A stretch of 64,000 nucleotides of DNA from a bacterium (GTDB lineage Bacteria; 4484-113), in the NCBI GenBank assembly GCA_021163765.1, contig JAGGTK010000053.1:8017-72016 (forward strand), read 5' to 3'. Position 1 is the first letter of the stretch, and every line of letters starts with the position of its first letter. Under the pieces are notes generated by a model that was not told the origin of the DNA, did no database searches, and was given only the letters and a program-made list of their open reading frames with translations. Below, one piece after another: positions 12,598 through 24,890 of the stretch. Both the position numbers and the translations under genes were made by a program.

Positions 12598-15500
12598 CTA
12601 ACGAAGTTCGTCCAGGGCGACCTCCACAGCTTTTCGGAGCTGCGGATCGTCCTCTGCCGCGACCACACCCAGGGGAGCCTCTACCACGACGTCCGGCTCG
12701 ACCGGATTGTTCTCCATGTTAGTGCCGTCCAGCCTGTAACGTCCTGTTAGCGGGATCCGGAACATTGTTCCATCGAGCAACTGGTAGTTGCGTGTGCCGA
12801 TAACCCCGCCGTTCGTGGGCATCCCCACGACCTTCCCTAAGCCAAGAACTCTAAACCCGTAGGCGAACATCTCGGCGTTGGAGAAGCTGTGCTGGTTGAT
12901 CAGGCACACCTTTACGCCCCGATACATCTTTGCCGGAGTAATATGCTTAGGTCCCGTGCGCCGCTGCATCATCCCGCTCGGCCGGCGGCCAAGTATCTCA
13001 AAGAGCTGCTCTGCGATGTATCCGCCGCCGTTGTATCTCACGTCAATTATTACTGCGTCATAATCCATTCCGTAGCCGAAAAGGTCGCGCTCGAAACGAT
13101 AAAGGCAATCGTCGTACATCCGCTGGATATGCAGATAGGTGACACGCCCGTCTGAAATCTCCTCCACATATTCCCGATTGTCCCGAACCCACTGCTCGTA
13201 CTCGAGATTCCTTTGTGCCGTGCGTGAGATAGGTCGCGTTCGAACTTCCTCGATATCCCCTTCTGCTCGTTTTACTTTCAGATGGACGGTTCTGCCGATA
13301 GTCCCGTCAAGGGCGCTGAAGAAATCCTCGCTGAAACCCGCAGATTTATCGTTTACCTCAAGAATTACGTCGCCCACGGATAGGCGGCTTTCGTCACGGT
13401 CGCTGGGCCCCATTTCAAGAACTTTCGCCACTTCCAGCCCGCGACCTTCGTAATCCGGATTGAAGTGGACACCGAGCATCCCTACGCTCGCGCCGATACC
13501 CTCAAAGCTCGTGTCTCCCCAGATACCGAGGTGGCTTGCGTTGAGTTCACCCAGCAGGAGTGTCGTGAATATGTTGAACTCCTCGTGAGTAACCGCGTGC
13601 TCTATCATACGGCGGTACTTACGGTATGCAGCATCCATATCCCGCCCGTGTAGCTTCGGGTCATAGAAGCCGTACTTCAGGTTGCGGTAAGCCTCATCGT
13701 ACATCGCGAGCAGTTCTGCCGGACGGTCCAGGAGAGTTCTCGCAGTAACCGCAACAGGAGACACTCCCTTCACCTTCGAGCCGCCCATTTCAATCTTTAC
13801 CAAACGACCGCCTTCGTAGATGCCATACGGGCCAGCGTCTGAAGTCCAGGTCAGCCAGTTCAGCGGCGCAGAGACCCCGACATAGTTGCTCTCACCCGTG
13901 AGAAGGTCAACCGCCCATAGCTTGTAGTCATTGGCGGTGGTGGATGCCTGATAGATGCAGGTTTTTCCATCAGGTGATACAGCGATGTTGTTTATGACAT
14001 CAAGGGCTTCGCTGATGACACGCGACCGGTGTTCGATGTTCCTGAAGTCGATCTCAACGAGCTGCTCATCTTCCTCTGGCGGCGCTTCATCACCTGTATC
14101 CTCGTCATCATCTCCCTCATCTTCAGCTTCGTCCCTGGCTTCAGGCTGTCCAAATTCCATTTCGTCTGTGAACAAAATCCCAGGTGGCTTCAGCGGCAGG
14201 AGATACACCCGCGAGTATTCGCCTTCACGGTAGCTCACGAACACGATGTTCTTACAGTCACCGGTCCACATCGGCCCCCAATTGGTAGTGGGATACTGTG
14301 TGATATTATGCGGCTCCCCACTGCCGTCCGGTTTAACCAGCCAGATGTCCCTGTCATACGCAGGCGTAATCTGCGTATAAGCCAGCCACTCGCTGTCCGG
14401 CGACCACTCCAGCGCCGTGTACCATACGCCACGACGGGTTACACCGTGCGCGACTCGCCGCTCACGCATCGTCTCCAGGTCAAGCACCATCAGGTCGCCT
14501 TCTCCTCGGTAAAAGGCTACTTTCGCGCCGTCAGGCGACAGTCGTGGATTGATGTCCACTTCATGCGTGTTCGTAAGGCGCTTCCATTCGCGCGTATTGA
14601 GGTCCAGTTCGTAGATATTCTGGTCGCCGTCCTTATCTGAAACGAATATAAGGCTGTCGCAGTCCGGATGCCACTGGACCATCCACTCACGACCGGGCGT
14701 ATTTGTGAAGTTCACCGCATCCCCACCATGTGGCGCATCCACTTCTTCCTCCGGCGTGCGCGAAACCGGCTGGATGTAGATATCCCCCCGGATGACCAGC
14801 GCTAGCCATTTGCCGTCAGGCGACGCAACAACCTCATCGGCAGTGCTGTAGACTTCGCGCGTTACATACTGAAACTTGCTGTCACCGCCTGCGAATATGC
14901 TCACACGCTTCGGCTCGCGAACCAGACCTTGAGGGCTGACCTTGCCCACATACAAGCTTCCGTCAGCCCAGACCGCAGCCGTTCCGTCAGTAGCAATGCT
15001 GGGATAGAAAATATCCTTTCCGGTGATCTTCAGGATCTCTCGCGGCCTGCCACCGTTAGCGTCGATCGCGAACACGCTCCTGCGGCCGTTTCGGTCGGCC
15101 GCGTAATAGACATAATTCCCGTCCACGGACCACTGCGCCCAGAACTGTCCGCCGTCCCAGCCGTCCAGGCGCCTGCCATCTTTCCCGTCAGCGTCCATCA
15201 CCCAGACCTGGGAGTTACCCGCACCACGATAGCCAAGCCTGGTGTACGAACTCGGGCCGCGGCCAAACGCAATCTGCGTGCCATCCGGGCTGTACCGCGG
15301 ATAGCGCAGCGACGTGTTGTCCCAGAGAATCAGCCGCTCCTCAAGCGTCTCGACGTCAACCTCCATCATCTGGCTGCCAGGGAAGTTCCTGTAGGTTGTA
15401 AACAGCACTCGCCTGCCGTCCGGCGACCAATCACCCGGATAGTCATTTGCGTCGCTGTATGTCAGCCTTTTCGCATCGCCGCCGGTGGAAGGAATCACGT

Positions 15501-15786
15501 AGATGTCGTAGTTCCCGTCGCGGTTGCTGCAAAACGCCAGCCTGGAGCCGTCAGGAGACCAGCGGGGGCTCCGGTCGAATGCCACGCTGACCGTAAGCCG
15601 TAAGGCTTGCCCACCAGCGGAAGGTGCAACCCATATGTCCCCCTGATACGAGAATGCAATCCGTCTGCCATCAGGTGAAATCCACGGGTATAGCAATCCG
15701 TGAGCTTCGTCGGCAGCGCTTACTGAAAGTGCAGCACAGAAGATGACTGCAAAGAAAGCTAAAAGAAAACGGGCAAGATATCGCAT
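12598..15786 (-). CDS. tricorn protease homolog (PD40/TolB-like beta-propellers + PDZ + S41 peptidase), secreted
   Basis: signal peptide MRYLARFLLAFFAVIFCAALSVSA; multiple beta-propeller repeats (SPDG..AF.S.RDG); C-terminal S41/tricorn core; AGGAGG RBS before ATG 15786; acidic insert DEAEDEGDDDEDTGDEAPPEEDEQ. Confidence 0.8.
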   Translation of the reverse strand: MRYLARFLLAFFAVIFCAALSVSAADEAHGLLYPWISPDGRRIAFSYQGDIWVAPSAGGQALRLTVSVAFDRSPRWSPDGSRLAFCSNRDGNYDIYVIPSTGGDAKRLTYSDANDYPGDWSPDGRRVLFTTYRNFPGSQMMEVDVETLEERLILWDNTSLRYPRYSPDGTQIAFGRGPSSYTRLGYRGAGNSQVWVMDADGKDGRRLDGWDGGQFWAQWSVDGNYVYYAADRNGRRSVFAIDANGGRPREILKITGKDIFYPSIATDGTAAVWADGSLYVGKVSPQGLVREPKRVSIFAGGDSKFQYVTREVYSTADEVVASPDGKWLALVIRGDIYIQPVSRTPEEEVDAPHGGDAVNFTNTPGREWMVQWHPDCDSLIFVSDKDGDQNIYELDLNTREWKRLTNTHEVDINPRLSPDGAKVAFYRGEGDLMVLDLETMRERRVAHGVTRRGVWYTALEWSPDSEWLAYTQITPAYDRDIWLVKPDGSGEPHNITQYPTTNWGPMWTGDCKNIVFVSYREGEYSRVYLLPLKPPGILFTDEMEFGQPEARDEAEDEGDDDEDTGDEAPPEEDEQLVEIDFRNIEHRSRVISEALDVINNIAVSPDGKTCIYQASTTANDYKLWAVDLLTGESNYVGVSAPLNWLTWTSDAGPYGIYEGGRLVKIEMGGSKVKGVSPVAVTARTLLDRPAELLAMYDEAYRNLKYGFYDPKLHGRDMDAAYRKYRRMIEHAVTHEEFNIFTTLLLGELNASHLGIWGDTSFEGIGASVGMLGVHFNPDYEGRGLEVAKVLEMGPSDRDESRLSVGDVILEVNDKSAGFSEDFFSALDGTIGRTVHLKVKRAEGDIEEVRTRPISRTAQRNLEYEQWVRDNREYVEEISDGRVTYLHIQRMYDDCLYRFERDLFGYGMDYDAVIIDVRYNGGGYIAEQLFEILGRRPSGMMQRRTGPKHITPAKMYRGVKVCLINQHSFSNAEMFAYGFRVLGLGKVVGMPTNGGVIGTRNYQLLDGTMFRIPLTGRYRLDGTNMENNPVEPDVVVEAPLGVVAAEDDPQLRKAVEVALDELR

Positions 15787-15833
15787 TGTGTAGGGCCTCC
15801 TAAGTGCCTGCCGAGCGATTATATCATCGCAGC

Positions 15834-16939
15834 TTAGATGGCTGCTGAGTCTTCCATCGGCAAACGCAGCAGCGCGCAAATCGTTGCGTTGACGGGCATC
15901 GGGATGCCATATCGTTGTGCGATGCCAAGCAGCAGCCTATTAAGATGCTTTGTTTCGCTTCTGCGACCCTTTATGCGGTCAATCAATTGCGAACTGAAGT
16001 TGCCCGCTGTGTCGCAACATATGCGCTCGAAGTCGCTAATGAGAGATTTAACACTGATACTCTCATCGCCCTTCTGCACAAAGCTTGCTGCCACCAGCAC
16101 ATCAACAATTTCCCTTGCCAGCTTGCCGGCTATTGGGCGCACTTCATCCATTAGCAGAGCCCCGTTGGGGTGCCCTGAAAGCGCCGCAAGGGGATTTACC
16201 AGGCAGTTCAAAGCAGCCTTGCGCAACATTGTCATATAGATGTCCGGCTGCACCTCGACGCGCAAAACGTTATCGTCAACCTGATTAGCCAGGCTCTCCA
16301 GCATCTCGATTTCTTCAAGGCGATATATGAGAGTCCCCGCGCCCGCTTCCGGCTCCACCGTAAGAAAGTCCGCATGCGGGGATTTCACGCGCCCAAGCAT
16401 CAGCCTTCCCCTCGGAATTAGCGAGAGCCTCGTTCCCTGACTGAATCCTCCGCCAAACATCACTCCGAGATCAAGCCCCGGATGCAGCCAGAACCCGTTT
16501 ACCACAAAAAAGCAAAGCCCCTTCAATCTGGATGCTATCTGTGAGCGCACTGTAAACAGTGAATCCGCCTTGGTGCAGGAAAAACTCACGTCCGGCTGGG
16601 TTTCAATAAATAGCTCCGCCTTTGAAATCAGCTCCTCGTCCGTGAAACTCAAATCAAGGTCGGGTTCGGTCTCTTCCAGCATCTTTAGGGAGGTTGCAGG
16701 CCTAACGGCTGGCTCAAGTCCCTCCGTTGAGATGTTATCCGGATCGCCAGGCACGAATGCCCGCAGGTCAAACTCAGAGCCAGGAGCCTGAAAGCTCACC
16801 CGCAGCCCCTCCTCTCGAAGTTTAGTGCGGATGGCCTCGTTGCGCACGTACCATCTAAGTTCGGTCTCGCCGCCGCGCTTCAGGGCAGTCACGAGCGCCA
16901 TTCCGACAGGCCCGGCTCCTATAACCCCCACACGCACTA
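15834..16939 (-). CDS. ketopantoate reductase (ApbA/PanE) family oxidoreductase
   Basis: N-terminal Rossmann VGVIGAGPVG; PanE C-terminal domain; GTG start overlapping upstream stop (TAGTG). Confidence 0.7.
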
Positions 16940-19741
16940 GCGGTCCTCCTTCACTGTGGACAGGAAGCTGCGCATCTGCTCACTGAGCTTATGCTTCGGC
17001 AGTTTTTTCATCGCAGGCCCAGGCAGGTTGCGCAGGAATTGCGCCCCGTAGTTCTTCGACAGTGCCCTGCGGTCAAGCAGTAACACGCAGCCGTAATCGT
17101 CAGTGCTACGTATTAGCCTGCCGAAGCCTTGCGTGAACTTCATTATCGCAGAGGGCAGCATATAGTCCCGGAACGAATTCCCGCCGTTGCGGTCAATATA
17201 GCGCACCTTCCCCGCAGTAAGCGGGTCGTGCAAATTGGGAAAGGGAAAGCGGCTGATAATCACACACTGCAAGTCCTCCCCGCGTATGTCAAAGCCCTCC
17301 CAGAAGCTGCGGGTTCCGAAGAGAATCGCCCTATCCTCTTTCCGGAAATCGCTGGCGAGCTGGAACCGCGACACGCCGCGTTCCTGCACCAACAGGTTGA
17401 AACCTGCTTCCTTCAGCTTCTCGCCCAGCCCCACGACGGCCAGCAAGTCACTATACGAGTTGAAAAGCACCAGAGTCGCACCGTTAAATACCTGGGCTGT
17501 TTCGTTCACAATCTCAGCCAGCGCCTCAAGGTACCTGTTGTGGGCTTTCTGGTCTCGAAAGTCCGGCTCTGGCACATCGCTTGGCACGAGCACAAGAGAC
17601 CGCCGCGCGTAGTCAAAGGGAGACGCCATAATGCTTTCTTCAAGGGCATCCTGCGGGAGTCTGTTCAGCCCCAGAATCCGCTTCACATAGTCGAACCTGC
17701 CGCCAATTGCGAGCGTGCCCGACACAATCACCGTTGACTTACGACTCTCCAGAAGGTCAGTGAAGTAATCGCCCACAACCACCGGGCACGCTGCGAGCTG
17801 CCAGAATATATCCCGCCTGCGGCCGGCAGCAGACGCTTCTATCCACCTGACCCAGGTTTCGTCCTCCGACAGGAGCTTCCCACATGCTTGCTTCAGTTGC
17901 TCATAAAGATTCACCGATTCACGAAGCTGTATCTGATACCTGTTGTCGTCGAGATAGAAAAATCCCTCCGTGTCACCGCCTGTCTGTTCCGCAAGCTGTG
18001 TTAGACCATCGTTGAGGTCTAGCAGGCGGTCATAGAGAACCGCAACCTCCTCCAGAAGGTTGTCGCGCAGCTCGATTACTTCTTTCTGCTGTGGCTCAGT
18101 CAGGTCCAGCCGCAGCATATCACGCGCGCGCTCATCCCTTAATTCATCAAAGGCCTGCTGCGCTATTTCGCTGAGAGCGGTGAAGCTCTCGTATATGCTT
18201 TCCGCAGCGCCGGGAGCCGCTGCCTGCATCTCCTTGAGCTGCATGTAGTTATCGCGCTTCTCTAACGGTACCTCATATTCGGGAAACGCCAGGCGTGATA
18301 CAAGAACGCGGTTTGAGATCAGACGCTGCAGGCTGTTAGAAAACTCGATTAGCTCAACAGATGCTACACTCGCCCCAAGCGCGTCCAGCAGAACCTCTTC
18401 CAGGTTATGGCCTTCGTCAAGTATCCAGTAAGGGCTGCTGTCCACAAAGGACGCTAGCGGGTCGGTCGCCGCATCCGTGCCCGGATGAGCCAGTGCAAAT
18501 AGAAGCGCATGGTTTACAATGACCACGGGTGAGCGTTCTGCCGCATCGCGCTGCGAATAGAAGTAACACTGCCCAAGCAGAGGGCACTTCTCTCGCAGGC
18601 ACCCCCGGAAGGCTGCGCTCAGCCGTCTTTTCAGTTTCGTCGCCGAATCCGCCGCAATCCCCTCCGGCATCCCGACATACTCGAAATCACCTGTCGCAGA
18701 GCTTGTCGCGTGCAGCGCAAGGCGCATTAGCGCCAGTGCCGCAGCGCGTGTGCTTCCCGGTTCTCCCGAACTGCTGAGCAGGTCACGCAAGTCTGAGCGC
18801 GAAGTCAGAGCGTTCAGCCGAAGTTTCTCCAGACAAAGGTAGTTCTCCCTGCCCTTGAGCACGACCGGAGGCGGGAGGGGCACTCCAAGCAGCTCTACAA
18901 GCTTTGGGTAATCGCTGGTGAGAAGCTGGTCCTGGAGTATTTTCGTGTTCGTTGAAATCAGAACCGGCTCGCCCGACGCAAGCGAATGCCGCACAACCGG
19001 TATGAGATACCCCAGCGACTTTCCCACGCCGGTGCCTGCCTCAATGAGCAGATTGCCCTCGTCAGCGAGAGTCTTTTGCACCCGCTTTGCAAACTGCTCC
19101 TGCTCAGCGCGGTACTCGTATCCCTGCTCGCCGAAATCCCCGTGGCGCAGGCGCGAGAAGACCTCGCCTGGCTGCGGCAACTGCTTCAGCATATCGAGCG
19201 GCGTTTCTTCCCTTGTTTTCGTGCGAGGCGGCAAGTCCGCACGCATATCCTCAGGGAAGTACGGATTCTCTCCAAGTAAAATTTCAGCCGCTTGCAGCGT
19301 GAACAGCGCAGGCGGGAGGCCGCCTTCGTCGGCAATCATCGCCAGCGAAGTTCGTAATCCCTCCGAGATGCCATTCAGCCGCTCAATGAGAATCGCCAGA
19401 GCCCCCAGCGTTTCCACGCCTTCGTCAGGAAGCCCTTCCGGCAGAACCGCATCCCACGTCGGCACGCGCTCTTTCAGCTCAGTTATCGTTCGGCAGGACG
19501 CTTTCTGGCCGCTCAGGTAGGCCACTTCGCCTGAAGTCGCGCACCTGTTTTCAGAAATGCCGAGAGCTTTAGGCTCAAGGGATGATTGGAGAATGTAACA
19601 ATCGGGCTTGAGGCCCTTCAGTGCGCTTGCGGCAATATGCTCAGGGGAAGCCACCGCGAGCTTACGTGCGACCGGGTCAACTTTCAGCGCGGTGTGCCAT
19701 AAATCCTCCGCAACGCCCGCGATAACCGCAATCCTCAACAT
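16937..19741 (-). CDS. DinG/Rad3-family ATP-dependent helicase with approx. 200-aa N-terminal extension
   Basis: Walker A AGTGVGKS, DEGH box (WILDEGHNLEEV), C-terminal helicase domain (VLLLDRR). Confidence 0.8.
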   Translation of the reverse strand: MLRIAVIAGVAEDLWHTALKVDPVARKLAVASPEHIAASALKGLKPDCYILQSSLEPKALGISENRCATSGEVAYLSGQKASCRTITELKERVPTWDAVLPEGLPDEGVETLGALAILIERLNGISEGLRTSLAMIADEGGLPPALFTLQAAEILLGENPYFPEDMRADLPPRTKTREETPLDMLKQLPQPGEVFSRLRHGDFGEQGYEYRAEQEQFAKRVQKTLADEGNLLIEAGTGVGKSLGYLIPVVRHSLASGEPVLISTNTKILQDQLLTSDYPKLVELLGVPLPPPVVLKGRENYLCLEKLRLNALTSRSDLRDLLSSSGEPGSTRAAALALMRLALHATSSATGDFEYVGMPEGIAADSATKLKRRLSAAFRGCLREKCPLLGQCYFYSQRDAAERSPVVIVNHALLFALAHPGTDAATDPLASFVDSSPYWILDEGHNLEEVLLDALGASVASVELIEFSNSLQRLISNRVLVSRLAFPEYEVPLEKRDNYMQLKEMQAAAPGAAESIYESFTALSEIAQQAFDELRDERARDMLRLDLTEPQQKEVIELRDNLLEEVAVLYDRLLDLNDGLTQLAEQTGGDTEGFFYLDDNRYQIQLRESVNLYEQLKQACGKLLSEDETWVRWIEASAAGRRRDIFWQLAACPVVVGDYFTDLLESRKSTVIVSGTLAIGGRFDYVKRILGLNRLPQDALEESIMASPFDYARRSLVLVPSDVPEPDFRDQKAHNRYLEALAEIVNETAQVFNGATLVLFNSYSDLLAVVGLGEKLKEAGFNLLVQERGVSRFQLASDFRKEDRAILFGTRSFWEGFDIRGEDLQCVIISRFPFPNLHDPLTAGKVRYIDRNGGNSFRDYMLPSAIMKFTQGFGRLIRSTDDYGCVLLLDRRALSKNYGAQFLRNLPGPAMKKLPKHKLSEQMRSFLSTVKEDR

Positions 19742-19800
19742 TGGTGTTCATTTTAGCACCGGCGCCATCAGGAACGCGTATGTGCTAGAATCTAGTTAGA

Positions 19801-20511
19801 ATGCGCTGTCCGCGATGTAAAGGTGAGCTTACGGTACCTGAGCTGTACTGCCCGCTCTGCGGAATCCGCTTCCAGGGATGCGCCTACTGCCACGAGCTGT
19901 TTGACGCCAGCGAGCGTTTCTGCCCCTTCTGCGGTCGTCCGGCCACACGCTCTTATTCCTTCGACGATATGGATGACGATTCCGTCGATAACCCCGGTGA
20001 CGAGCGGCTAAGCAGATTGGAGATTGGAGACGAGACCCCTGTTTTGCCAGCGTCCGATGAGCGCTTCACAGTAGAGGCGCTCTCAGAGGAACACGCTAAA
20101 GCTGCACAGGAAACCGCGAGAAGATCCGATGCACTAAAGAATCTGGAAGCCAGGAAAGCCAATCTTGCCAGGGGGAAAGGGGTCGTGCCACGGGAGGATG
20201 GCCCATGGGAACCCAGCGATTGGTGGTTCTGGTGGTTTCCCTGGCCATGGTGGGCCACATGGGGTTATCATCCCTACTACTATCATCCAGCTTTCTACTT
20301 GATGCGCATCTTCGCGGCACTAATCATACTGGCATTCTTTTTTATCTACACATATCCTCAGTTCGTCGCCTATCGCGCCGCAGCTTATCCAGGAACATTC
20401 CCTTCCTGGATGTTGACCTGGCCTTTCTTGATACTGGCGGGAACCATACTTATGGGAATTATTTATGGCCTATTTACGTGGCTAATGTTCCGTGCGAGGA
20501 AGCGGCGGTGA
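19801..20511 (+). CDS. double zinc-ribbon membrane protein (paralog A) with Trp-rich segment
   Basis: four CxxC pairs in first 50 aa; WWFWWFPWPWWATWGYHPYYYHP; two C-terminal TM helices. Confidence 0.6.
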   Translation: MRCPRCKGELTVPELYCPLCGIRFQGCAYCHELFDASERFCPFCGRPATRSYSFDDMDDDSVDNPGDERLSRLEIGDETPVLPASDERFTVEALSEEHAKAAQETARRSDALKNLEARKANLARGKGVVPREDGPWEPSDWWFWWFPWPWWATWGYHPYYYHPAFYLMRIFAALIILAFFFIYTYPQFVAYRAAAYPGTFPSWMLTWPFLILAGTILMGIIYGLFTWLMFRARKRR

Positions 20512-20515
20512 CGGG

Positions 20516-21007
20516 ATGGAGAACGAAGTACCACGATGCCCCTATTGCGCCGAGCCACTAAGCGAGAACCTTGTCTGCAAGAGCTGCAACTTTGCATTCC
20601 AACGTTGCTCGCGCTGTGGGGCTTTAGTCGTTGCGGGCGTTAATAAGTGCCCGCAATGCGGTGAGCCCATCGTCCCCCTGAAATCCCCTGAACCTGGCAC
20701 GCCGGCATCCGGGCGCAGAGGCGACTTGCCCGTCTGGTTTGACCCTCTAGGCATTGGTTCAAAACTGCTTCTTGCGTACTTCACGCTTGGCGCGATTTTC
20801 GCCGCGATAATTACGGTTTTCATGTACCGAGCACGTATCCGATTTATAAATGAGTTCAGTGACCTGTTTTCCCAACTCGGGCTAAGCAGCGGCACCGGAT
20901 ACTACTATGACATTGGGCTAGCGATAGGCTTGACCTCTTTTACGCTCTTTACCATCGGTGCAGTCTCACTCATCATCCTGCGTGTGCAGCGAGGTAAGCG
21001 GCAGTGA
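20516..21007 (+). CDS. double zinc-ribbon membrane protein (paralog B)
   Basis: CPYC..CKSC..CSRC..CPQC then two TM helices; ATG 20516 just after paralog A stop. Confidence 0.6.
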   Translation: MENEVPRCPYCAEPLSENLVCKSCNFAFQRCSRCGALVVAGVNKCPQCGEPIVPLKSPEPGTPASGRRGDLPVWFDPLGIGSKLLLAYFTLGAIFAAIITVFMYRARIRFINEFSDLFSQLGLSSGTGYYYDIGLAIGLTSFTLFTIGAVSLIILRVQRGKRQ

Positions 21008-21714
21008 GAACAGAACTTAAATGCCCCAATTGCGGCACAGAGCTTGGCGCGGCGACGCTTCGCTGCGAGCATTGCGAGATCACGTTCGTCAGGTGCGAAG
21101 GCTGCGGCAGGCTTCAACCGGAATGGGTGAGCATTTGCGCGTATTGCGGCTCGCCGGTGCATGGCGGTATCTCGGTAGACGCTGGGAAAAAGCGGGCAAT
21201 TGAAGTTGATGACGAATCAGCGCAAGCGGTTCCCTCGCCTTTAAGTAAGCCAAGAAAGCCTACAATTCGCGAGCGCCTTCACCGGTTGGACACAAAGGCG
21301 CGAGAGAAGATACGGTCAAAAATGCCCCATACGAAACCTCCGCGCCGGCAGATTACGGGTCCCCTCACCGGGGACGAGCCAGTTCCGAGCATAACGACCA
21401 AGCGAGCGCGCCATGTTACGCACGACTTTGACCCGCTGGTTGCGCAAGAGGAGCTCCGAAAAGAAGAGCAAAAGCGGATGAAGCGCTGGCGGGAAACCGA
21501 GCGGCTAAATCCGAATTGGTTCTATAAGCAGTCTGCCGTGCCGGCTATGCTTGTTCTTCTCGGGCTAATGTGGGCATATGGGAGCTTCCGGTATTCAGCC
21601 AGGAGCTATGGTGAGCCCGATATTACTTGCTACATTCCGCACATACTGATTGGCGTGGGGTTTCTGTGGATAGTAATCCTGGCTCTAATCGACCGCATCC
21701 GGCCGATCAGATAG
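21004..21714 (+). CDS. double zinc-ribbon membrane protein (paralog C)
   Basis: CPNC..CEHC..CEGC..CAYC then basic linker and two TM helices; GTG start overlapping stop of paralog B (GTGA). Confidence 0.6.
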   Translation: MRTELKCPNCGTELGAATLRCEHCEITFVRCEGCGRLQPEWVSICAYCGSPVHGGISVDAGKKRAIEVDDESAQAVPSPLSKPRKPTIRERLHRLDTKAREKIRSKMPHTKPPRRQITGPLTGDEPVPSITTKRARHVTHDFDPLVAQEELRKEEQKRMKRWRETERLNPNWFYKQSAVPAMLVLLGLMWAYGSFRYSARSYGEPDITCYIPHILIGVGFLWIVILALIDRIRPIR

Positions 21715-21863
21715 AGCAAGCCATCCCAACGGCAGCAGAGACGAGACGCACAGCCAGCGAGGATTATTAAGCCGCAAAGGAACCGAGCAAGTTCACGCAA
21801 GGCCCCCTGGTGCCGCTGCTGCAATACCAAAGGGGGCCGGAGTGTGTGTGTCACCGCTGGCGA

Positions 21864-23102
21864 CTAGTTGTCCGATGGAGTATTTTGGCTGATGATCCCA
21901 GGATGCCCGGTGCCGTCCGACGCGTTTTCGGAATCGTGGCCTCTTGACAGATTCACGCCACCGCTGTCCGCTTCGTGCGGCTGCCAGCTGCTGGTGACAA
22001 TCATACTCTTGTCCCGACGCTGCGCCAGAAGGTCGTCATACCAGAACGCCTCGTCGTCACGGTAAAAGACAAGGAACTTTCCCTCCCTGCTGGCATCTCT
22101 GGCGCGGTGATACTTCACGTAGATATGCTTGCCGGTCACCCCAACAACCTCTATTTTGCCACGCTCGTGGCTCATCACATATCGCACTCGCCGGGCCAGC
22201 CCGGATACCCGGTACTTGGCATATTCGATGAGGAAGTAGCATCTGGTGATGGGCACAGCATAAGGGAAGTTGCCAGTGGTTGGCCTGCACTGGAAGAAAT
22301 AATAGGGGACCGCGCCGCAGGCCATGAGCTCGTTCATCAGTTCAACGAGCACGTCCACGTCATCATTTACCCCCTGTATGATGGGTGTCTGGTTACATAC
22401 AACTGCACCTGTTCGAAGCAGCGCGCCTATTGAAGCCCTTGCGACATCAGTTAGCTCACGCGGGTGATTGAAGTGAGACATCACATATATGCGCTGGCGC
22501 CCGGTGTTGTAGCGTTCCAGGAGATTGAGAAGCTCGCGGTCGTTGATAATCCTCTGAGGGAAATAAGCAGGCAGCTTGCTGCCTAGCCGTATTGCGCGAA
22601 CATGGTCTATTGCAGACAGCCCTTCTATTATCTCTGTAAGCCGACGAGTGCTTAACATCAGGGCATCGCCGCCGGTTACCAGCACATTCGAAATCTCAGG
22701 ATGTCGCCGAACATATTGCAGCGCCGCTGGCAGGTTAAGAGCGGTCTCTCTTTTCTCCTTGTCCACAAACAACCGCTTGCGGAAACAGAAGCGGCACTGC
22801 CCACCGCACACTTCACTGGCAAGAAAGAGTGCGGTGTCAGAGTATTTATGCTGAACTCCCGGCATTACCGTGCTTAAGGCCTCGTTACTGGGGTCCCTGC
22901 GACCCCATGAGAGTGTTTCCTCCTCGGTCGGCACTACAATTCGACGGATAGGATCATAGGGGTCTTCCCAATTAATCAATCCCAGGTAATAGTCTGTGGC
23001 CAGGAAACGATACTTATCCTGCACGCGAAGCAGCCGCGCTTGCTCGTCTTCGGGCATTTGCGCGACTTTACGAATGTCTTTCAGAAACTTCACTTTTACC
23101 AT
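21864..23102 (-). CDS. KamA-family radical SAM protein (lysine 2,3-aminomutase-like)
   Basis: CGGQCRFCFR motif diagnostic of KamA/EpmB family; GGAGGAGG RBS before ATG 23102 (ORF open from 23270). Confidence 0.82.
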   Translation of the reverse strand: MVKVKFLKDIRKVAQMPEDEQARLLRVQDKYRFLATDYYLGLINWEDPYDPIRRIVVPTEEETLSWGRRDPSNEALSTVMPGVQHKYSDTALFLASEVCGGQCRFCFRKRLFVDKEKRETALNLPAALQYVRRHPEISNVLVTGGDALMLSTRRLTEIIEGLSAIDHVRAIRLGSKLPAYFPQRIINDRELLNLLERYNTGRQRIYVMSHFNHPRELTDVARASIGALLRTGAVVCNQTPIIQGVNDDVDVLVELMNELMACGAVPYYFFQCRPTTGNFPYAVPITRCYFLIEYAKYRVSGLARRVRYVMSHERGKIEVVGVTGKHIYVKYHRARDASREGKFLVFYRDDEAFWYDDLLAQRRDKSMIVTSSWQPHEADSGGVNLSRGHDSENASDGTGHPGIISQNTPSDN

Positions 23103-23428
23103 AGGCCCCTCCTTCCAGCCATACACGAGCTGGCTCAAGACCACCCGGCGTCGTGCCGAATCCTGGGCGGTTTCTCGCCGCAGCGCACGCGCCGCATTTC
23201 GACGATCGGTCGCCTTGCCTGCGAATACGCAACTAAAGCGCCCGCACATCACTTCGTCGAACTCGTTCAAGCCCTACCGCAGAAACAAGCAGGTACCAGG
23301 CATTTAGTAACCGAGCCTTTGTTCGCCCATCGTTCGTTCGACGGCCTGATTTAATTATAACTCAGAATACGCTTCTATTTCAAGGCTCGCTTGAAATGCC
23401 TCTGGTGTTCTATCATACTTAATCCTTG

Positions 23429-24301
23429 ATGAGCAGCAACAATGCGCTATGCATAAATGAAGAATTCCAGGCCTTGCTCTCCGACTATACACACGGCGCA
23501 GCAGTACTCACGCGCCATCTGTTACAGTTGATAATAAACCTGAGCGGCAGTGTGAACATTGTGCAGAACGACCTTGAGCAAGCCCTCGGGCTGCTTCGAA
23601 AGGCGCATCCTGAAATGGTCTCGCTCAGACAGGCCATTGCGCTAATTCTGAAGCGCGTAGAAGAAGGAACAGATGCGGGCAATGCATCCCAGGAGCTTGA
23701 GCACAAGTGGAATGCGCACCTGGAACGTGTAACTGAGATAGCTGCCGCATATCTGGCGCAGCATAAGCGAGTCCTCACCATAAGCTACTCAGGATTAGTG
23801 CGCGATGCGATTCTGAAGGCAACAGCCCAGGGCAGCATTATAGAAGCCTATTTGGGTGAAGGTCGCCCTAAGTATGAAGGCCTGACTTTCGCTCGTGAGT
23901 TAGCCAATAAAGGCGTCCCCTGCACGGTCTTCGCGGACGCAGCATTTTCCAGCTTTTATAATGAAATAGACTGCGTTCTAGTCGGCGCAGATGCGGTTGG
24001 CCCAAGCTCACTGCTCAACAAGATCGGCACCACGGCGATACTCCGTGAAGCGCGGGCGCGTGATATCCCTTCGGCAGTGGCATACGATTTCCTGAAGGTA
24101 GTTGAGGACGGCGGATTCCCGGACTTAATCGCCGAGTATCCGGCTGAAGAGCTGCTTGCAGGCGGATTGGCTCCACAGGGGGCTGACGGCGATGCAGGCC
24201 CAATCCGGCTTCCAAACTGTTTGCGCGCTGTCAACCGCTACTTTGAGGAGGTACCGCTCCACCTGATCGATGTGGAGCTTACAGATTCACAGCAAGAATA
24301 A
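23429..24301 (+). CDS. eIF-2B alpha/beta/delta-like family protein (ribose-1,5-bisphosphate / MTR-1-P isomerase family)
   Basis: IF-2B family core (ISYSGLV, GEGRP, VLVGADAV). Confidence 0.7.
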   Translation: MSSNNALCINEEFQALLSDYTHGAAVLTRHLLQLIINLSGSVNIVQNDLEQALGLLRKAHPEMVSLRQAIALILKRVEEGTDAGNASQELEHKWNAHLERVTEIAAAYLAQHKRVLTISYSGLVRDAILKATAQGSIIEAYLGEGRPKYEGLTFARELANKGVPCTVFADAAFSSFYNEIDCVLVGADAVGPSSLLNKIGTTAILREARARDIPSAVAYDFLKVVEDGGFPDLIAEYPAEELLAGGLAPQGADGDAGPIRLPNCLRAVNRYFEEVPLHLIDVELTDSQQE

Positions 24302-24306
24302 AAAAA

Positions 24307-24327
24307 GTGCCGCGACTTGCGCGGCAC
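24307..24327 (-). terminator. intrinsic terminator hairpin GTGCCGCG-n5-CGCGGCAC followed by U7 on the minus strand
   Basis: 8-bp GC-rich stem, 5-nt loop, A7 on plus strand = T7 on minus strand immediately after the hairpin. Confidence 0.6.
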
Positions 24328-24890
24328 ATCTACCCCAGACCTCCTGGCGGAGGCCCCACAATTAACAAATATACCGACCACGCCTCAACAGGCGAATTCC
24401 CCGAAGGATGTATAGATGACTCCTAAGAACCGCCTACACCTTCCTCCTAAATACAGGCTCTGATGTCTCCCCGGAACGCTTTGTAGCAGCATTGCTGAAC
24501 CTTGCGGAACAGCATTGTTGCCCCGAGACGTTCCCTTTGACACGGCGAAGTCTTCCTCCCGAAGGAGGAAGCTGATTACGCCGGCTCTCCGCAGTTATCA
24601 GCAGCCACCGCATTTGCACCGAAGCGCGAATGCCTGTGATGTCGACGCCCTGCTGGGATACACCGTGGCCTTTCTTTCAAAGAACTCACCCTCCGCGTGG
24701 TCGGGGTATACCGAATTAAATAATACCGGACAGGGGGACGGGTTACAAGGGGTTAGCACGTTAAATACGCTGGGCAACTTATCAACACCTTCTGCCACAG
24801 TCATTATTTTCTTCGCAACCGCAACGAATCGCTCCCTGCTGTCCCCCTTGGACTACCTTTTATTGGCTACGCCGCCACGCCGTGCCCGTA

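Follow-up and report, generated by a model that had tools for sequence, protein, structure and literature searches.

Three coupled double-zinc-ribbon membrane proteins and an IF-2B-like neighbor in an uncultured planctomycete-like bacterium

Three open reading frames (ORFs), which we designate A, B, and C, lie back-to-back on the plus strand (positions 19801-21714) of a 64-kb stretch of contig JAGGTK010000053.1, hereafter "the window," from an uncultured planctomycete-like bacterium. Each encodes a protein with an N-terminal domain of four CxxC pairs, predicted to form two zinc ribbons, and two C-terminal transmembrane (TM) helices. We found that A and C define two orthogroups that are traceable separately across deep lineages, always together, and that, wherever the region downstream of the zinc-ribbon pair is visible, a gene for an IF-2B-like protein is separated from the pair by no more than one gene. 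With a little less than even confidence, we propose that A, B, and C are co-translated and together make up a heteromeric membrane platform that would tether a partner from the cytoplasm, most likely the IF-2B-like protein, a variant with Ser at the position of a catalytic Cys; our confidence in the structural description of A, B, and C alone is much higher.

Gene organization and evidence for coding function

The coordinates of the three genes (lengths in amino acids [aa]) and of the main features of A are as follows.

19801-20511, plus strand: gene A, 236 aa, ATG start at 19801, TGA stop at 20509-20511; from N to C terminus, double zinc ribbon, acidic linker with ERLSRLEIG, helix, Trp-rich juxtamembrane segment, TM hairpin, basic tail
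20516-21007, plus strand: gene B, 163 aa, likely ATG start at 20516-20518, TGA stop at 21005-21007; double zinc ribbon, short 29-aa linker, TM hairpin with a 26-aa loop, basic tail
21004-21714, plus strand: gene C, 236 aa, GTG start at 21004-21006; double zinc ribbon, basic linker with KRAIEVDD and ERLHRLDT, charged helix, LNPNW motif, TM hairpin, basic tail
19807-19932, plus strand: double zinc ribbon of A, aa 3-44, with CxxC pairs C3/C6, C17/C20, C27/C30, and C41/C44
20002-20028, plus strand: linker motif ERLSRLEIG of A, aa 68-76
20221-20289, plus strand: Trp/Tyr/Pro-rich juxtamembrane segment WWFWWFPWPWWATWGYHPYYYHP of A, aa 141-163
20290-20490, plus strand: TM hairpin of A from hydropathy (TM1, ~aa 164-188; loop; TM2, ~aa 203-230)

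An earlier reading of the window from its sequence alone (the sequence-only reading) described three same-strand, coupled genes, and this is confirmed in every detail: four nucleotides (nt), CGGG, separate the A stop codon from the ATG of B, which begins at the fifth base past the stop, and the GTG of C overlaps the TGA of B as GTGA (a 4-nt overlap). The 4-nt A-B spacing recurs in orthologous loci L001, L002, and L003; the full geometry (4-nt gap, 4-nt overlap) is kept in the window, L003, and L001/L004/L005. In L085, the A-B gap is likewise 4 nt, but the B-C overlap is 11 nt. In a consensus scan with a required −35 element, neither a sigma-70-type promoter nor a terminator was matched between A, B, and C, which fits a single A-B-C transcript.

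A regular-expression scan of the six-frame ORFs of at least 50 aa in the window found the fourfold CxxC pattern in A, B, and C only, arguing that the pattern is not due to chance. Nei-Gojobori estimates of the nonsynonymous-to-synonymous substitution ratio (dN/dS), for the window versus L001, L002, and L003, were 0.07-0.14 for A, 0.12-0.24 for B, and 0.10-0.17 for C, at a synonymous divergence of ~0.6-2; the neighboring helicase and lipoamide dehydrogenase genes gave 0.10-0.13 and 0.07-0.12. Thus, A, B, and C are functional coding genes under purifying selection like that on their housekeeping neighbors, and no copy is decaying. The region does not stand out in base composition. Rfam yielded nothing at E ≤ 1 over positions 19000-24500 and nothing at gathering score across the whole window, so we rejected a riboswitch or other RNA element near the genes.

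Zinc ribbons, linkers, and membrane hairpins

ORF translations and hydropathy bore out the earlier description of each protein as four CxxC pairs followed by two C-terminal TM helices. The Cys pairs of B are CPYC, CKSC, CSRC, and CPQC, and those of C are CPNC, CEHC, CEGC, and CAYC; in A, the ribbon Cys residues are invariant across aligned orthologs. A hidden Markov model (HMM) search, proposed with the sequence-only reading as a check, was run, and zinc-ribbon models were the best Pfam matches of all three proteins. Matches to PF12773 (DZR) covered the model in full (positions 1-45 of 45) and scored below its gathering threshold of 27.3 bits: 25.8 bits for A (E = 1.2e-5), 20.3 for B (E = 6e-4), and 19.9 for C (E = 8e-4). 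B passes the threshold of PF13248 (Zn_ribbon_3; 33.8 versus 27 bits). The defining DZR pattern, four CxxC pairs within ~45 residues, is present in A, B, and C, and orthologs carry precomputed PF12773 or PF13248 labels. All three ribbon domains are putatively zinc binding. Each half of the A ribbon superposes on single 24- to 29-residue ribbons of the RanBP2/NZF type (root mean square deviation, 0.5-0.8 Å), with E-values that are not significant; this comparison, made with a low-confidence model, suggests two sequential ribbons rather than a cross-braced, RING-like site.

Beyond the zinc ribbon, no characterized family was found for A, B, or C in Pfam, NCBIfam, PADLOC, PHROGs, PDB sequences, or Foldseek, in agreement with the sequence-only reading, which assigned them no function. 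Specifically, a profile search of PDB sequences returned nothing below E = 0.004, the PADLOC anti-phage defense models matched none of the three, and PHROGs gave weak matches to the zinc-ribbon region alone, all to families without known function. Foldseek found no PDB match to the A model at E ≤ 0.001, the confidence of that model being too low for whole-chain conclusions from a fold search. The literature excerpts that mention the zinc-ribbon domain assign no function to it.

The claim that the three proteins are paralogs stands for the zinc-ribbon domain, over which pairwise BLASTP similarity is significant (31-41% identity; E = 1e-8 to 6e-8); outside it, the proteins share architecture and short motifs with no alignable sequence. 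One such motif, R-L-x-R-L-E-x-G, recurs in the linkers. Residues R69, S71, R72, E74, and G76 of the A motif are invariant across the A orthogroup, including relatives only 22-30% identical; further invariants besides the Cys ligands are P138, R169 (at the cytoplasmic end of TM1), F179, and, in TM2, G214 and Y222. C carries the related motifs KRAIEVDD, directly past the ribbon, and ERLHRLDT; other lineages have RFHKVELE and RLDRLETG. All three genes of locus L009 encode a version as well (DRLSRLEIG in the first, GRIGRLETG in the second and third). The motifs sit amid variable, Pro-rich linkers to which AlphaFold2 (AF2) assigns low confidence, a pattern typical of short docking motifs as judged from sequence. 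Orthologs differ synonymously across the A motif, which shows that selection acts at the protein level. A 7-nt tandem repeat (AGATTGG, 2.4 copies; 20014-20030, plus strand) falls inside the codons for RLEIG; we rejected it as a DNA element because it is not conserved at the DNA level in orthologs, and it is probably incidental to those codons. In addition, C orthologs share an L-N-P-x-W motif just ahead of TM1, and A orthologs share a V-V-x-x-E/D...P-W-E segment.

All copies have the same architecture: they lack a signal peptide and begin with the fourfold CxxC domain, and their C-terminal part consists of two hydrophobic helices and a basic tail. In B, the TM segments fall at aa 84-104 and 133-155 by hydropathy. 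The tails read RARKRR in A, RVQRGKRQ in B, and DRIRPIR in C. The loops between the helices are ~12-26 residues long (YPQFVAYRAAAYPGTFPSW in A, FRYSARSYGEPDITCY in C); with such short loops and only the basic tail past TM2, none of the three has an extracytoplasmic sensor or ligand-binding domain. Because there is no signal peptide and the tails are basic (positive-inside rule), we infer an N-in/C-in topology that would place the ribbons in the cytoplasm. AF2 monomer models of A and C are of low confidence (mean predicted local distance difference test [pLDDT] of 54.5 and 59.4) and agree on a folded ribbon domain (pLDDT of ~70) and on two TM helices, with one or two long helices in the cytoplasm. 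Modeled helices span residues 163-193 and 203-235 in A and 88-106, 144-167, 171-198, and 211-232 in C.

Distribution and evolution of the family

A word-indexed search of 5.8 billion proteins found four relatives of A and eight of C; A orthologs are 75-87% identical to the window protein, and the eight C orthologs are 61-99% identical. Searching 1.84 billion cluster representatives exhaustively with a HMMER profile produced 38 matches at E ≤ 0.001: one full-length A-type cluster (P0013), four distant relatives with the full architecture (P0015, P0016, P0029, and P0042), and otherwise matches to the zinc ribbon only. Among 185,579 species-representative genomes, an A protein of the WFPWPWW type occurred in one, a metagenome-assembled genome labeled "Planctomycetales bacterium" (JAUWGS01). 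No relatives were found in viral contigs. When metagenomes were scanned with generic zinc-ribbon patterns, 73 of the 74 loci proved to be unrelated DZR architectures and only L011 belonged to the family. The A/B/C family is thus very rare, confined to a few uncultured genomes, and known from metagenome assemblies only.

That scan of metagenomes also brought up many ~375-aa proteins whose double zinc ribbon is C-terminal (L060 type and similar; for example, L016, L019, L039, and L048), as well as ~1,100-aa proteins with an N-terminal ribbon, both unrelated to the family. Proteins P0055 to P0057, with TPR and zinc-ribbon Pfam labels and the JGI name "RPABC4/Spt4," may be of the ~375-aa kind.

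Gene order differs among the loci. In the window clade and L085, whose A is 51% identical, a divergent helicase gene is followed by A, B, C, a convergent radical-SAM gene, and the IF-2B-like gene. In L009, a divergent helicase (56% identical) precedes three zinc-ribbon genes that run up to the contig end, the A-type protein being ~27-30% identical; the P0042 contig carries tricorn, ApbA_C, helicase, and A-type genes, in that order. L006/L007, L008, and L011 have just two zinc-ribbon genes with a 4-nt stop/start overlap (ATGA in L006 and L011), the IF-2B-like gene 100-122 nt downstream of the pair, and flanking genes that differ between L006/L008 and L011.

All-against-all BLAST grouped the first genes of L006, L008, L009, and L011 with A of the window and of L085, and the second genes of L006, L008, and L011 with C of the window and of L085 (window C versus L006, E = 4e-22). 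B has no clear ortholog outside the window clade and L085, and genes 2 and 3 of L009 are no closer to any one of A, B, and C than to the others. Given the two-gene loci and the restricted occurrence of B, the ancestral unit was probably an overlapping A+C pair, to which B or another third gene would be a later or fast-evolving addition. Conservation of the triplication, raised as a question in the sequence-only reading, therefore holds within this clade (L001, L002, L003, L005, and L085) and in L009, whereas the deeper unit is the A+C pair.

The IF-2B-like neighbor

A check of genomic context, also proposed with the sequence-only reading, was run and identified one neighbor kept across distant lineages.

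23426-24301, plus strand: IF-2B-like gene (PF01008, E = 6.5e-34), conserved neighbor of the A-C pair
10538-11356 of L006, 1883-2701 of L008, and 9573-10409 of L011: IF-2B-like genes at other loci

In L006, L008, and L011, this gene is the next one downstream of the pair; in the window clade and L085, a single gene intervenes. Across the window, L006/L008, and L011, its products share just 37-55% identity, and the flanking genes are not the same. We regard this synteny as the strongest contextual clue to a partner of A and C, weakened by the convergent KamA-like gene that intervenes in the window clade.

The closest solved relatives of the IF-2B-like protein are archaeal ribose-1,5-bisphosphate isomerases (E = 4e-15) and eIF2B alpha/delta. 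Its T-I-S-Y-S aligns to T-H-C-H-S of the isomerase, which puts Ser at the catalytic Cys position, while the Asp of the GAD motif is retained; in the aligned isomerase, the deposited chain is a mutant with that same Cys changed to Ser. The surrounding ISYSGL is conserved in L008 and L011. The protein also scores far under every NCBIfam equivalog cutoff (84 versus 314 bits), so that it has neither the catalytic Cys nor the equivalog score of a ribose-1,5-bisphosphate or methylthioribose-1-phosphate isomerase. Since Ser holds the catalytic Cys position, the protein is, by sequence, more probably sugar-phosphate-binding than an isomerase. The literature searched brought up no bacterial PF01008 members beside zinc-ribbon membrane proteins.

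The Trp-rich juxtamembrane segment of A

The unusual Trp-rich stretch reported at the membrane interface of A is indeed there, at aa 141-163, with 8 Trp within 15 residues; no other ORF of at least 100 aa in the window has more than 4 in such a span. The Wimley-White interfacial free energy of residues 141-159, ~−16 kcal/mol, is the strongest in the protein, exceeding that of either TM helix; Kyte-Doolittle hydropathy is negative, prolines are interspersed, and AF2 predicts no regular structure (pLDDT of <50). WFPWPWW is invariant in close A orthologs, and LPWPWW is retained at 51% identity (P0013); more distant A orthologs lack the segment. At the same position, L009 has RYRRRYETHLW, P0042 has a Tyr/Pro-rich run, and L006/L011 have PWELSRRK or PWELGAPKK. 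The WWF-WWF at the start of the segment is encoded by a 9-nt direct duplication (TGGTGGTTC TGGTGGTTT; 20221-20238, plus strand), one unit of which is missing from ortholog P0003; ortholog P0002 has WWFKWF. We read the stretch as a putative clade-specific interfacial anchor in the cytoplasmic leaflet that would stand in for a basic or Tyr/Pro-rich juxtamembrane patch.

Proposed function and alternatives

We propose that A, B, and C would assemble in the inner membrane as one complex, a single transcript fixing the proportion of the three subunits; nearly all of its mass would lie in the cytoplasm. Every subunit would be held by its C-terminal two-helix hairpin, with both ends in the cytoplasm, and would carry its ~45-residue double ribbon on a long, mostly disordered tether. 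The assembly could then act as a membrane docking platform, whose ribbons and R-L-x-R-L-E-x-G motifs catch a cytoplasmic partner; on genomic grounds, the likeliest would be the adjacent IF-2B-like protein. The Trp-rich stretch of A might serve as an interfacial wedge in the cytoplasmic leaflet just before TM1. What leads us to this platform is the conserved coupling, the shared architecture, the co-occurrence of A and C, the synteny with the IF-2B-like gene in three unrelated contexts, and the invariant linker motif, together with the lack of promoter or terminator matches between the genes, the purifying selection on all three, the conserved Ser-bearing ISYSGL, and the strong interfacial partitioning predicted for the Trp-rich segment.

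Several points weigh against it. There is no direct evidence of A-B-C contact, the structures being monomer models of low confidence. A convergent KamA-like gene separates C from the IF-2B-like gene in the window clade, so those two genes cannot be co-transcribed there. B, which has no clear ortholog in the pair-only lineages, is apparently not essential to the core. All the lineages may share one phylum, so part of the synteny may be inherited rather than selected. Finally, the linkers of A and C carry complementary charges in the window (−9 and +11), but this fails in L085, L006, and L011, and we rejected it as a family feature.

An extension of the platform model is quite unlikely as it stands and is offered as speculation: a hitherto undescribed bacterial membrane switch, in which an eIF2B-like sugar-phosphate sensor docks on or leaves the A-C(-B) platform via R-L-x-R-L-E-x-G and so couples a metabolite signal to a membrane-proximal process, with the Trp-rich wedge additionally shaping or marking the cytoplasmic leaflet. 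The sequence-only reading noted that such modules recur in membrane-associated signaling and stress systems. We found nothing to connect A, B, and C with such systems: no sigma factor, kinase, response regulator, or defense gene is adjacent to them, and they lack an extracytoplasmic sensor domain.

Nucleic acids are frequent ligands of zinc ribbons, and A, B, and C might instead be membrane-tethered nucleic-acid binders, either transcription factors or anchors for DNA transactions linked to the DinG-like helicase. We consider this unlikely, though it has points in its favor. Proteins with N-terminal paired ribbons of PF12773, PF13240, or PF13248, a TM helix, and an extracellular domain are proposed to be membrane-tethered transcription factors in excerpts of two reports (PMC3355149, PMC3581485); in the window clade, L085, L009, and the P0042 contig, the helicase gene sits next to the A-type gene and is transcribed away from it; and the C linker is strongly basic in the window. 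However, the helicase is not a neighbor in L006, L008, or L011, the linkers of A and of most C orthologs are acidic, and no extracytoplasmic sensor domain is present to gate release. The ribbon halves, moreover, resemble protein- or RNA-binding RanBP2/NZF ribbons, albeit not significantly.

It is rather improbable that the three genes encode independent, partly redundant paralogs that act alone or as homo-oligomers, with the tandem a mere record of recent duplication. In favor of this reading, the paralogs can be aligned over the ribbon domain alone, gene number is two or three according to lineage, and C evolves much faster than A between clades (25% versus 50% identity, window versus L085). 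Yet A and C form ancient, distinct orthogroups that are never found apart and show stop/start overlaps, purifying selection acts on every copy, and the paralogs diverged long before the clade did, hence the duplication was not recent.

We are more doubtful still of a membrane-active device, that is, a small channel or pore of CorA-like layout or a curvature or remodeling element acting through a Trp wedge, with the ribbons as regulators. The cytoplasmic N-domain, two C-terminal TM helices, and basic tail would suit a channel; the Trp/Pro-rich segment resembles membrane-perturbing sequences, and an excerpt on planctomycetes describes their heavily invaginated membranes (PMC8567305). Nevertheless, the TM helices lack a conserved polar or charged lining, except for one Arg at the cytoplasmic end of TM1 of A, and there is no GMN-type loop motif and no transporter family match in Pfam or NCBIfam. 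Most of the family does without the Trp-rich segment, which cannot then be a core function.

Zinc-binding anti-sigma factors also have a cytoplasmic zinc-binding N-domain followed by a membrane anchor, the layout of A, B, and C, but we give very little credence to an anti-sigma-like sequestration of a transcription factor at the membrane, because there is no zf-HC2 or other anti-sigma family match, no HxxxCxxC motif, and no sigma factor gene among the neighbors at any locus examined.

Other neighboring genes

The surroundings are of chromosomal housekeeping type and include genes for a tricorn-like protease, an ApbA_C protein, a DinG-like helicase, lipoamide dehydrogenase, OMP decarboxylase, and TsaD/TsaE. 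Those closest to A, B, and C, apart from the IF-2B-like gene, are as follows.

16937-19741, minus strand: DinG/YoaA-like helicase, 934 aa (Helicase_C_2, E = 8.5e-43), divergent from A
21864-23270, minus strand: KamA-family radical SAM aminomutase-like gene, convergent with C
12598-15879, minus strand: tricorn-protease-like gene with PD40 repeats, Tricorn_C1, PDZ, and Peptidase_S41

The helicase matches NCBIfam DinG/YoaA models at E of ~1e-120, yet falls under the equivalog cutoffs. Its N-terminal extension of ~200 residues has no Pfam match and can be aligned in the L009 homolog (56% identity in a full-length alignment). We rejected a defense-system reading of this gene because its matches to type IV CRISPR DinG are equaled by those to housekeeping DinG/YoaA and because PADLOC was empty for A, B, and C. 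The block of tricorn-like, ApbA_C, and helicase genes is syntenic in the window clade and the P0042 contig.

For the KamA-like protein, models of glutamate, lysine, and arginine 2,3-aminomutase and of EpmB give similar matches (E = 1e-52 to 1e-64), none of which reaches its equivalog cutoff. Its ORF in the window is 468 aa from a TTG; since annotated orthologs have 407-412 aa, translation probably starts at a more downstream codon. A shared radical-SAM partner was considered and rejected, since the KamA-like gene of the window and the radical-SAM gene next to the pair in L008 are not orthologous (E = 0.028) and so do not belong to a conserved module.

Expression signals

The divergent intergenic region between the helicase gene and A is 59 nt long (19742-19800) and contains two mirror-image boxes.

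19783-19791, plus strand: extended −10-like box TGCTAGAAT, 9 nt upstream of the ATG of A, probably the A-B-C promoter
19758-19750, minus strand: extended −10-like box TGCTAAAAT, 8 nt ahead of the helicase ATG

Both boxes are invariant in four orthologous loci even though synonymous sites are near saturation (synonymous divergence of ~1), and TGCTANAAT occurs 7 times in the window versus ~2 expected. Their invariance, their distance of 8-9 nt from the ATGs, and this overrepresentation suggest that transcripts in this organism may have no leader or almost none. A GC-rich hairpin (GGCCCCCTGGT...ACCAAAGGGGGCC; 21801-21838), located where C and the KamA-like gene converge, forms a stable stem, but its z score is only −1.4 and it lacks a T-tract; we therefore rejected it as a terminator.

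Significance and comparison with known systems

To our knowledge, bacterial genomes very commonly encode proteins in which N-terminal zinc ribbons are joined to a membrane anchor, and a role is known for almost none of them. The present family is an unusually clean case: it combines coupled paralogs, a docking-type motif, a conserved soluble neighbor, and a natural swap of juxtamembrane segments (basic, Tyr/Pro-rich, or Trp-rich). If the IF-2B-like protein is the partner, a function would be assigned for the first time both to a bacterial eIF2B-like protein that lacks the isomerase Cys and to a double zinc ribbon tethered to the membrane. If not, the family is a lineage-restricted one, and its occurrence in metagenomes only limits the immediate impact.

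The ribbons of A, B, and C have the arrangement of Pfam DZR (PF12773) and Zn_ribbon_3 (PF13248), which are domain families without an assigned function; those models omit the linker, motifs, and TM hairpin found here. RING-CH/MARCH membrane E3 ligases differ in having a cross-braced C4HC3 site: A, B, and C offer no His ligand, and a RING model matched B only at E = 0.087. CorA/ZntB channels, which have two TM helices, are set apart by their GMN-type loop, absent from A, B, and C, and neither Pfam nor NCBIfam has an HMM for that family that matches them.

The Trp-rich segment of A is like indolicidin, a Trp/Pro-rich membrane-perturbing sequence according to an excerpt of PMC12421676, and like the juxtamembrane aromatic regions of viral fusion proteins described in parts of PMC4521866 and PMC2805634 (the membrane-proximal external region of HIV gp41 and the corresponding region of coronavirus spike) in composition and W-P-W spacing; the viral regions also share its position directly before a TM helix. 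There is no homology: the segment of A is uncharged, clade-specific, and part of a bacterial inner-membrane protein, on whose cytoplasmic side it is predicted to lie. The likeness is one of composition only; strong interfacial partitioning is predicted for the segment.

The neighbor of the pair is a clear member of the family of ribose-1,5-bisphosphate isomerases and eIF2B regulatory subunits (PF01008), from which it differs by its Ser for the catalytic Cys and its score below the cutoffs. The nearest parallel to the zinc-ribbon proteins themselves is found in Gram-positive bacteria, where excerpts describe proteins (for example, YARHG- and SHOCT-associated) that, as here, join N-terminal cytoplasmic paired ribbons to a membrane anchor (PMC3355149, PMC3581485). 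Relatives with this zinc-ribbon/TM/extracellular layout (P0036 and P0039) surfaced in our profile search. Those Gram-positive proteins are single-pass, have a sizeable extracellular domain, and are encoded by single genes, whereas A, B, and C have a two-helix hairpin, no outside domain, and two or three coupled paralogs. The zinc-ribbon domain and the layout of cytoplasmic ribbon and membrane anchor are already known, albeit functionally uncharacterized; the A and C orthogroups with their coupling, their linker motif, their IF-2B-like neighbor, and the extreme Trp-rich variant of A appear to be undescribed.

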